DNA of 64,000 bases from Escherichia coli O127:H6 str. E2348/69 (GTDB lineage: Bacteria; Pseudomonadota; Gammaproteobacteria; Enterobacterales; Enterobacteriaceae), in the NCBI RefSeq assembly GCF_000026545.1, contig NC_011601.1, one strand, 5' to 3'. The translations under genes and the position numbers were made by a program. Position 1 is the stretch's first letter. Every line of letters begins with the position of its first letter. The notes beneath the pieces are model-generated. The model was not told where the DNA came from. It did no database searches and saw only the letters and a program-made list of their open reading frames with translations. Positions 7,869 through 17,337 of the stretch are shown here, one piece after another.

Positions 7869-9242
7869 GTGGATCATTTGCCTATATTTTGCCAATTACG
7901 CGATCGCGACTGTCTGATTGTCGGCGGTGGTGATGTCGCGGAACGCAAAGCAAGGTTGCTGTTAGACGCAGGCGCTCGCTTAACGGTGAATGCATTAGCG
8001 TTTATTCCACAGTTCACCGCATGGGCAGATGCAGGCATGTTAACCCTCGTCGAAGGGCCATTTGATGAAAGCCTTCTCGACACCTGCTGGCTGGCGATTG
8101 CAGCGACAGATGATGACGCGCTTAACCAGCGCGTCAGCGAAGCCGCTGAAGCTCGTCGCATCTTCTGTAACGTGGTCGATGCGCCGAAAGCCGCCAGCTT
8201 TATTATGCCGTCGATTATTGACCGCTCGCCGCTCATGGTAGCGGTCTCCTCTGGCGGCACCTCTCCGGTTCTGGCGCGCCTGTTGCGCGAAAAACTCGAA
8301 TCACTGCTGCCGTTACATCTGGGCCAGGTAGCGAAATACGCCGGGCAATTACGCGGGCGAGTGAAACAACAGTTCGCCACGATGGGTGAGCGTCGCCGTT
8401 TCTGGGAGAAATTATTCGTTAACGACCGCCTGGCGCAGTCGCTGGCCAACAACGATCAGAAAGCCATTACTGAAACCACCGAACAGTTAATCAACGAACC
8501 GCTCGACCATCGCGGTGAAGTGGTGCTGGTTGGTGCAGGTCCGGGCGATGCCGGGCTGCTGACACTGAAAGGTCTGCAACAAATTCAGCAGGCAGATGTG
8601 GTGGTCTACGACCGTCTGGTTTCTGACGATATTATGAATCTGGTACGCCGCGATGCTGATCGCGTTTTCGTCGGCAAACGCGCGGGATACCACTGCGTAC
8701 CGCAGGAAGAGATTAACCAGATCCTGCTGCGGGAAGCGCAAAAAGGTAAACGCGTGGTGCGTCTGAAAGGCGGCGATCCGTTTATTTTCGGGCGTGGCGG
8801 AGAAGAGCTGGAAACACTGTGCAACGCGGGTATTCCATTCTCGGTGGTTCCGGGTATTACCGCAGCTTCTGGTTGCTCTGCCTATTCGGGTATTCCGCTC
8901 ACGCATCGCGATTATGCCCAGAGCGTACGCTTAATTACTGGACACTTAAAAACCGGTGGCGAGCTGGACTGGGAAAACCTGGCGGCAGAAAAACAGACGC
9001 TGGTGTTTTATATGGGGCTGAATCAGGCTGCAACTATTCAGCAAAAGCTGATTGAATACGGTATGCCTGGTGAAATGCCGGTGGCAATTGTCGAAAACGG
9101 AACGGCAGTCACGCAGCGCGTGATTGACGGTACGCTCACGCAGCTGGGCGAACTGGCGCAGCAAATGAACAGTCCATCGCTAATTATTATTGGTCGGGTT
9201 GTTGGCCTGCGCGATAAATTGAACTGGTTCTCTAACCATTAA
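7869..9242 (+). CDS. cysG: Siroheme synthase CysG (uroporphyrinogen-III methyltransferase / precorrin-2 dehydrogenase / ferrochelatase), 457 aa, GTG start
   Basis: ORF 7869..9242 (+), 457 aa; N-terminal NAD-binding [18 protein letters not shown]-terminal methyltransferase domain ([18 protein letters not shown]). Confidence 0.95.
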
Positions 9243-9251
9243 TTTAACCAG

Positions 9252-9274
9252 GGCCAGAGAAGTCTGGCCTTTTT
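9252..9274 (+). terminator. Rho-independent terminator after cysG
   Basis: ggccaga-gaag-tctggcc hairpin followed by ttttt, 10 nt after the cysG stop. Confidence 0.75.
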
Positions 9275-9493
9275 CGTTTACAACTCTCTTTATATATTCA
9301 GCAGATAAAAACATAACCCCTTAATAAATATTGTCTGCTAATGGGTTATATTCACCGTTACAGCGACTTACAAAATTAAATCAATCGCTCACTGACGCTA
9401 ATTGAATATTCCTGTATCGTTCTTAATGAGCAGTCTGCTTATATTCATATAATCAATGAATATTAATTAATATATAATACATAGGGAATGTAA

Positions 9494-9661
9494 ATGAACA
9501 AATTTATTAAAGTTGCACTGGTAGGCGCAGTACTGGCTACGTTAACTGCATGTACTGGTCATATTGAAAACCGTGATAAGAACTGCTCTTACGACTACCT
9601 GCTGCACCCGGCAATTTCTATTTCTAAAATCATTGGCAGTTGCGGTCCGACTGCACAGTAA
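9494..9661 (+). CDS. yhfL: Small lipoprotein YhfL, 55 aa
   Basis: ATG at 9494; translation MNKFIKVALVGAVLATLTACTGHIENRDKNCSYDYLLHPAISISKIIGSCGPTAQ with a lipobox (LTAC); below the ORF-track size cutoff. Confidence 0.8.
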   Translation: MNKFIKVALVGAVLATLTACTGHIENRDKNCSYDYLLHPAISISKIIGSCGPTAQ

Positions 9662-9702
9662 GTCTCTGACAGAAATCGGCTAACGCCGGTTTAATTGCCT
9701 GA

Positions 9703-9740
9703 CGCCCTCGGAGTTATCCGAGGGCGTATTTATTTCTGCA
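9703..9740 (+). terminator. Rho-independent terminator after yhfL (at the yhfL/yhfS convergent junction)
   Basis: acgccctcgg-agttat-ccgagggcgt (10-bp stem) followed by atttatttct. Confidence 0.7.
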
Positions 9741-9767
9741 TTCTTTTCGAAAACATCATGCACAAGA

Positions 9768-10853
9768 TTAAATACTGGCAATACTCTCACGCAAAATCCG
9801 CAGCACCGTCTCTTCACCGCTGCGATTCGGGTTAATGCGAATCGCGCAATGTTCGAGTTGTGGATTCGCCTGACGAAACGTTCCGGAAAGTCGATAAAAG
9901 AGCGGCGGGATTTCATATTTCGACTCTGCACCAACCGGGTAAGGCAAGGCACCGAGTTTCTGCGCCTCTTCCAGCACTCTGGCGGCAATCGGCTGATGAA
10001 ACTCCACAATCAATACCTTCGACTGTGCATTGGCAATGACGGCGCTTTTCACTTCAGACACCGCGCCGCCGTTAAGCAAAGCCAGCAACCGTTCAGATAC
10101 TCCCGCCTGCACCGCATGCATCACCGGCGCAAACACCAGCCCACGCAAGACTTCCAGCGCCTGTGCACCCTGAATCTGGCTGCCGCCGGAATAGAGCGTG
10201 GCGCGAATCCGGCTAATAACATCGGCATCGCCTACCACCACACCAACGCCCTCTGGCCCAAACAGCTTGAAGCAGGAGAATGTCGACACATTCGCCCCGC
10301 ATTCGCAGCCGATTCGCGCTACCTTCATCACCGCATAGTTGTCATCGGTTAACGCTGGAACACCTGCCGCGCGCAACGTTGCCAGCACGTCTGCCAGCAC
10401 ATAGCGGTCCTGCGGCTGCTGGCGCGTATGCTGCACCAGCGCGGCATCAGGTTGTTGCTCGTCAACAACCTGCTTCAGTGCCGACAGATCATTGAAATCA
10501 GCCGTAATGAGCGTTAGCCCCATCTGCTCAATAATAACCCGTGTCGTCGGGTAAACAGGCGCGTCATGCACCAGAAGACGCTGCCCCGATTTGAGCAAAG
10601 CCGCCAGTGCCGCACGGATCGCGCCAGTACCCGCGCCCTGTACCAGCGCCGCGGCCTGTGCGTGAAACGCGTCAGCCAGCACCTGTTCCACACGCTGGGT
10701 AATGCGGGGCTGATTTAGCCCCGGCGTTAAGCCCAAATCACCGCAGGTAAGAAACTCGCAGCCAGGAAAATGACGGCAAATCGTGTCCACCAGCGCAAAC
10801 TGCTTTTGCTGCGCCTCAATAAGCGTCAGGCTTTGCAGAGGAAACGTCTTCAT
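9768..10853 (-). CDS. yhfS: YhfS, putative PLP-dependent enzyme of unknown function, 361 aa
   Basis: ORF 9768..10853 (-), 361 aa; recognised as E. coli YhfS by sequence and by synteny with yhfT..yhfZ; function not established. Confidence 0.85.
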   Translation of the reverse strand: MKTFPLQSLTLIEAQQKQFALVDTICRHFPGCEFLTCGDLGLTPGLNQPRITQRVEQVLADAFHAQAAALVQGAGTGAIRAALAALLKSGQRLLVHDAPVYPTTRVIIEQMGLTLITADFNDLSALKQVVDEQQPDAALVQHTRQQPQDRYVLADVLATLRAAGVPALTDDNYAVMKVARIGCECGANVSTFSCFKLFGPEGVGVVVGDADVISRIRATLYSGGSQIQGAQALEVLRGLVFAPVMHAVQAGVSERLLALLNGGAVSEVKSAVIANAQSKVLIVEFHQPIAARVLEEAQKLGALPYPVGAESKYEIPPLFYRLSGTFRQANPQLEHCAIRINPNRSGEETVLRILRESIASI

Positions 10854-17178: not shown

Positions 17179-17295
17179 AATATATTTTCAATAAAATGAA
17201 TGTTTATATCTTCAGGAATTTGAAGATAAGGCGCAACAGCGAGATGTGGAAACGGCGAGGCGCTTCACATTTTTTCGGATTATTGCAAATGAGGA

Positions 17296-17322
17296 TAAAA
17301 AAACCGGGTTTCCCCGGTTTTT
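17296..17322 (-). terminator. Rho-independent terminator after trpS (symmetric hairpin flanked by A and T runs)
   Basis: aaaaaaa-ccgggtttccccgg-ttttt; read on the minus strand this is a hairpin followed by a U-run immediately after the trpS stop (17338). Confidence 0.8.
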
Positions 17323-17337
17323 GGCATTAATGTTAAA

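Follow-up and report, generated by a model that had tools for sequence, protein, structure and literature searches.

The frlABCDR-less yhfL-yhfS junction of Escherichia coli O127:H6 E2348/69 as the probable ancestral, unoccupied form of the site

The frlABCDR operon for fructoselysine utilisation is situated between yhfL and yhfS in E. coli K-12. E. coli O127:H6 E2348/69, a strain of phylogroup B2 (PMC4464170), was found to contain only a short spacer at this position, and the question is whether its lineage has lost the operon or has never carried it. A sequence-only reading of a 64-kb stretch of E2348/69 DNA (the window) had claimed that frlABCDR was absent from the junction, being either never acquired or cleanly lost.

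The absence of frl from B2 is already known from the literature, and E2348/69 is a true but ordinary case of it. Previous work reported that neither the transporter nor the frl operon occurs in B2 strains and predicted no growth of these strains on fructoselysine or psicoselysine (Fang et al., 2018; PMC5996543); the reported figures were 0-3% of B2 strains against 69-91% in the other E. coli/Shigella categories (PMC5996543). The absence has also been called a hallmark of B2 in a 2025 preprint (bioRxiv 10.1101/2025.09.14.675865). The genotype of E2348/69 is the same thing as this published frl-negative B2 genotype and does not differ from it in kind. Beyond the published B2 trait, our study adds the exact break points, the evidence on the ancestral site and the finding of the empty allele in arpA-positive (non-B2/F/G) genomes.

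The junction in E2348/69 and its counterpart in K-12

In the window, the genes nirB, nirD, nirC and cysG were present upstream of yhfL, and yhfS was followed downstream, on the minus strand, by yhfT, yhfU, php, yhfW and on to trpS. In RefSeq, the E2348/69 sequence identical to the window is annotated with yhfS directly after yhfL. When 9250-10250 was searched by megablast in a set of 5,426 complete E. coli genomes, E2348/69 matched at 100% over 1,001 bp. The YhfL proteins of the window and K-12 were 98% identical, and yhfS was 96% identical at the amino-acid level and 92% at the DNA level. The ORF list and the terminator scan confirmed the distance of 106 bp between the two stop codons and the one hairpin terminator described in the sequence-only reading, and RNA folding added a second, weaker hairpin upstream (Table 1).

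Table 1. Features of the yhfL-yhfS junction in the window.
Feature	Position	Strand	Description and basis
yhfL	9494-9661	+	55-aa YhfL family small protein, left flank; ORF list, RefSeq
yhfL-yhfS intergenic region	9662-9767	.	106 bp; unoccupied form of the K-12 frlABCDR site
Weaker upstream hairpin	~9673-9692	+	8-bp stem, shortly 3' of the yhfL stop; RNA fold
Main hairpin and T-rich tail	9702-9737	+	11-bp stem 9702-9727, 4-nt loop; terminator scan
29-bp spacer GCATTCTTTTCGAAAACATCATGCACAAG	9738-9766	.	Confined to empty-site alleles; pairwise alignment
yhfS	9768-10853	-	361 aa, PLP-dependent aminotransferase-fold protein, right flank; ORF list, RefSeq

The terminator scan of the spacer gave a single site, with the tail ATTTATTTCT after the stem. 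Eight of the 11 stem pairs were G-C, and over nine Escherichia haplotypes 97% of the cells were paired, with compensatory changes at two pairs. The main hairpin thus resembled rho-independent terminators in its GC-rich stem-loop, the T-run after it and the conservation of the stem among relatives, and it is likely to be the terminator of yhfL, as predicted from these features. The RNA fold of 9655-9775 was -39.2 kcal/mol (z = -5.2 vs shuffles). An Rfam scan of 9000-10200 at E <= 1 found no match, and hence no known sRNA in the spacer.

The order of genes in K-12 (NCM3722, L001) was cysG-yhfL-frlA-frlB-frlC-frlD-frlR-yhfS, so the K-12 map given in the sequence-only reading was right and yhfL and yhfS were not adjacent there. 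The site is the same in both strains, with nirBDC-cysG-yhfL to its left and yhfS to yhfZ, then trpS, to its right. Local pairwise alignment has shown that the left homology ended at 9737, just beyond the terminator tail, and that the right homology began at 9767, 1 nt before the yhfS stop codon. Between these break points the window contained the 29 bp of 9738-9766, whereas K-12 contained 5,242 bp (L001 8483-13724), which bears out the absence of frlABCDR from this junction. The K-12 segment starts with about 220 bp upstream of frlA (promoter/operator), followed by frlA-D and frlR, and a REP element and a ~45-bp GC-rich palindromic repeat, which we take to be boxC-like, are present 3' of frlR. 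In a MAFFT alignment, the first ~20 bp of the 29-bp spacer loosely matched the left end of the insert, ATGTCCTTCTTG...AAAAATAT, with a 13-bp gap; this identity is too low to be decisive, which places the left boundary anywhere from 9737 to ~9757.

Distribution of the empty junction and of frl

The contiguous yhfL-yhfS junction, with one alignment piece spanning it, was found in 2,105 of the 5,426 complete E. coli genomes (39%), and 3,297 genomes contained 80% or more of the frl segment of K-12. A sensitive blastn search for frlB, with detection down to ~65-70% identity, found frlB-like DNA in 3,299 genomes and none in the other 2,127. About 22 of the 5,426 genomes fell in neither class, among them a partial frlB (H170) and a truncation of the yhfL region (H40). 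As the frlB, island and junction counts show, the empty junction and the presence of frl are essentially complementary states.

The same counts bear on the idea that E2348/69 contains the frl genes at another chromosomal or plasmid site. The frlB gene was found at a single place per genome in all but one genome, which contained two, and in every case it lay on the chromosome, with no plasmid copy; the 2,127 genomes without it stand against 2,105 empty junctions. No frl DNA was found elsewhere in the frl-less genomes of the 5,426, where the island query matched just REP-type and GC-rich repeats, and a tblastn search found no Frl homologue encoded across the 64-kb window. Previous work also reported B2 strains without the transporter and the operon (PMC5996543). 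Together, the collection-wide counts and the literature suggest that frl would be absent from E2348/69 outside the window as well, and we assign almost no probability to a relocated operon.

In the Clermont scheme, phylogroups B2, F and G are marked by the absence of arpA. In our study, arpA served as the phylogroup proxy, and phylogroup labels other than that of E2348/69 are provisional or deduced from the arpA counts. Since arpA-like DNA was found in 4,108 of the 5,426 genomes, at most 1,318 are without it, and at least 787 of the 2,105 frl-less genomes are therefore arpA-positive. One E. coli strain, EBJ003, was checked directly and was found to contain a full-length arpA, yhfS adjoining yhfL and a 29-bp spacer identical to that of the window; strain BEC1-S17-ESBL-09 (BEC1), which is also arpA-positive, carries frl. 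The absence of frl is wider than B2, being found in at least one arpA-positive strain. A passage on B2 and D in PMC11774025, in which Amadori degradation is described as exclusive to "lower phylons", was considered and set aside as evidence; it is ambiguous and conflicts with these counts and with PMC5996543.

The ancestral state of the site

To place the empty junction among relatives, one genome per species was surveyed with a YhfS query and 10-kb flanks, in which YhfT, YhfS, Frl, YhfL, CysG and NirC were placed by tblastn. The yhfS gene adjoined yhfL without frl in the type strain of E. albertii, in E. whittamii, in Escherichia sp. MOD1-EC7003 and in strain SCPM-O-B-8794, as well as in five Citrobacter, one Enterobacter and four Buttiauxella genomes. 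In several other genera, cysG was its direct neighbour. The only representative of this YhfS-based scan to contain frl was strain E69, which is labelled E. coli. The 29-bp spacer and the terminator of the window aligned with those of Escherichia sp. (L004), E. whittamii (L005), a further Escherichia lineage (L006) and E. albertii (L010), and by this Escherichia alignment the junction of the window was orthologous to the empty junctions of the outgroups. No clear counterpart of the 29-bp spacer was found in K-12, O157 or E69, its first part aligning weakly to the left end of the insert. Because the spacer and the terminator are conserved among the empty sites of Escherichia, the empty yhfL-yhfS junction is, as judged from these alignments, the ancestral, unoccupied site and not a deletion scar.

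Our main reading, to which we give a probability of about 0.8, is that the B2 lineage of E2348/69 never carried frl and that its junction has kept the ancestral, unoccupied state. A single insertion of 5.2 kb, consisting of the frlA promoter/operator and frlABCDR, would have occurred elsewhere in the species (in K-12, O111 and O157, for example) and would have replaced or disrupted the 29-bp spacer beside the yhfS stop codon. Nothing would have been deleted in the lineage of E2348/69, and the 106-bp spacer would consist of the original spacer together with the terminator of yhfL.

The opposite course, in which the B2 lineage had a K-12-like yhfL-frlABCDR-yhfS arrangement and lost 5.2 kb by a clean intrachromosomal deletion, is highly improbable. 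Deletions do occur in this interval, for example that of yhfS-yhfZ in O157:H7 through two copies of a ~45-bp repeat, but the frl-positive arrangement does not contain the sequence of 9738-9766 as such, whereas four further Escherichia lineages have conserved it. As a deletion adds no new sequence and these 29 bp are not found as such in frl-positive genomes, a plain deletion is excluded. Direct repeats that could mediate such a loss were not found to flank the K-12 segment: the longest k-mer shared by the K-12 joints was 6 nt, which was equalled in 969 of 1,000 shuffles, so that the short direct repeats proposed as a hint of deletion did not appear beyond chance. Of the two alternatives left by the sequence-only reading, never acquired is thus the favoured one and cleanly lost, in the form of a plain deletion, is excluded.

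A second course is that the B2 ancestor contained frl and that recombination across yhfL/cysG and yhfS with an frl-less Escherichia donor restored the exact 29-bp spacer. This may be argued from E69 (CP089930.1, L003 5286-10158), in which frlABCDR lies at the identical joints and differs by 4-9% at the DNA level, for the most part synonymously, so that the insertion may be older than much of the E. coli radiation. The genes around the site in E69 were as distant from those of K-12, B2, O157 and BEC1 as are those of other Escherichia species (cysG ~94%, yhfT 92-93%); if E69 branches outside B2 and K-12, B2 would have regained the empty allele by recombination. The yhfS gene points in the same direction. 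The yhfS alleles of K-12, B2 and BEC1 were equidistant, at ~92% mutual DNA identity against 95.5-98% in the neighbouring genes, and they did not sort by the presence of frl (window vs L001, L091 and L003); this incongruence indicates that recombination has acted around the site, and the polymorphism suggests either old alleles or recombination beside the insertion site. Against a restored spacer, the B2 flanks were no nearer to the sampled non-coli Escherichia than those of K-12 (yhfS 89-90%, vs 92% to K-12), and with the empty state in 39% of the genomes, at least 787 of them arpA-positive and EBJ003 checked, one gain elsewhere in the species is simpler. We regard the restoration of the empty allele as unlikely, though less so than a plain deletion of the operon.

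If the lineage of E2348/69 never carried frl, the strain should be unable to import, phosphorylate or deglycate fructoselysine and psicoselysine, in keeping with the pathway of K-12 (Wiame et al., 2002, 2004, as cited in PMC5996543) and with the model predictions for B2 (PMC5996543). This has limited practical weight. As with other strains of B2, E2348/69 would be expected not to use these two dietary Amadori products, and comparisons of metabolic models already draw on the niche difference that separates B2 from most strains of A, B1 and E.

The frl insertion and other alleles of the cysG-trpS interval

The left joint of the insertion, in which …GTATTTGTTTCT is followed by AT…, and the right joint, in which …CTATCCAGC is followed by ATTAAATACTGG, were common to K-12, O111:H8, BEC1 and E69. 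O157:H7 contained the same left joint, its right end having gone through a later deletion. For phylogroups, we take K-12 to be A, O111:H8 to be B1 and O157:H7 to be E. As the joints are identical in all frl-positive haplotypes examined, the operon represents one derived insertion. Compared with K-12, the frl genes of O157 were 97-98.7% identical (flanking core: nirC 98.6%, cysG 97.0%), those of BEC1 95-98% (flanking core 95.8-97.6%) and those of E69 91-96% (flanking core 93-97%). The divergence of frl between lineages is about that of the flanking core genes, which argues that the insertion is old. The statement that B2 dispensed with the enzymes (PMC5996543) is then probably the wrong way round, since frl would have been gained once, long ago, by part of the species, and not lost in B2.

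Like the classical genomic islands, frl of K-12 is a strain-variable accessory metabolic block at a fixed site; it differs from them in lacking the hallmarks of mobile elements and in having the G+C content of its neighbours. No target-site duplication or terminal inverted repeat beyond chance was found at the K-12 joints, and the K-12 frl segment contained no integrase, transposase, tRNA or IS element, its annotation showing frlABCDR alone. The G+C content of the frl coding region was 0.51-0.59, without deviation from the 0.50-0.60 of nirC/cysG and yhfS/yhfT.

The nearest FrlB proteins outside E. coli were those of Serratia sp. and Sodalis sp. C49 (83-84% identity); those of Paenibacillus and of many Clostridia came next, at 55-73%. 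The operons of Serratia and Sodalis were colinear with that of E. coli (permease, SIS deglycase, epimerase, PfkB kinase and GntR regulator) and showed 72% DNA identity to it over 4.95 kb, including the operator region of frlA. The operator-like motif CATCATATGTTGTTATATTCATCAT was present upstream of frlA in the E. coli, Serratia and Sodalis operons, so the promoter region arrived with the insert. The Frl proteins were 60-84% identical to those of Sodalis/Serratia, and the neighbouring core proteins of Sodalis were in the same range (56-85%). With the closest outside FrlB at just 83-84%, no donor can be named. Entry may have been by illegitimate recombination, or by import of the operon with flanks that were later homogenised; both are guesses.

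The Serratia sp. operon (L084) was found in an unrelated context. In Sodalis sp. C49 (L083 6603-11559), the colinear frlABCDR adjoins trpS, in the interval fic-yhfG-ppiA-tsgA ... trpS-gph-rpe-dam-damX, so the cysG/tsgA-trpS interval may be a recurrent landing site. A wider picture, which we offer tentatively and hold to be rather doubtful, is that the frl difference is an ancient polymorphism: a single insertion without a mobile signature that has persisted, or has been swapped through homologous recombination in its flanks, among the E. coli phylogroups and at least in the strongly diverged lineage of E69, with cysG/tsgA-trpS as a recurrent landing site of metabolic operons in Enterobacterales.

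The O157:H7 type is another allele of the same variable cysG-trpS interval, but its content is the opposite of that in the window, frl being present and yhfS-yhfZ absent. In O157:H7 EDL933 (L086 8085-8235), frlR was directly followed by trpS, with yhfS to yhfZ missing, and this frlR-trpS junction was found in 342 of the 5,426 genomes. The GC-rich repeat TCCCCTCACCCTAACCCTCTCCCCAAAGGGGCGAGGGGACCGT (~45 bp) was present in two direct copies in O111:H8 (L088 1720-1890 and 9285-9570), one after frlR and the other just before the stop codon of trpS; neither copy was found in the window. The O157 junction was an exact recombinant of both O111:H8 copies, and its arrangement is therefore secondary, the product of a repeat-mediated deletion of ~7.7 kb. 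This repeat-recombinant junction rules out the O157 type as the original entry of frl, which the frlR-trpS adjacency of Sodalis had hinted at.

Some further variation was observed in the interval. The frlD gene of EDL933, encoding fructoselysine 6-kinase (L086 6475-7260), was annotated as a pseudogene with an internal stop, so the frl operon of O157:H7, though present, may be non-functional. The yhfZ-trpS spacer of the window (17179-17337) was 159 bp long, vs 289 bp in K-12 and ~270 bp in O111:H8, and was devoid of the REP elements that K-12 contains there and of the GC-rich repeat that O111:H8 contains there. At least three allelic forms of the cysG-trpS interval were thus found, which can be used as simple lineage markers. 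In BEC1 (L091 2645-2751), the frlR-yhfS spacer was 107 bp instead of 151 bp, with most of the GC-rich repeat gone and eight extra bases present, which indicates that the repeat 3' of frlR is itself variable among frl-positive strains.
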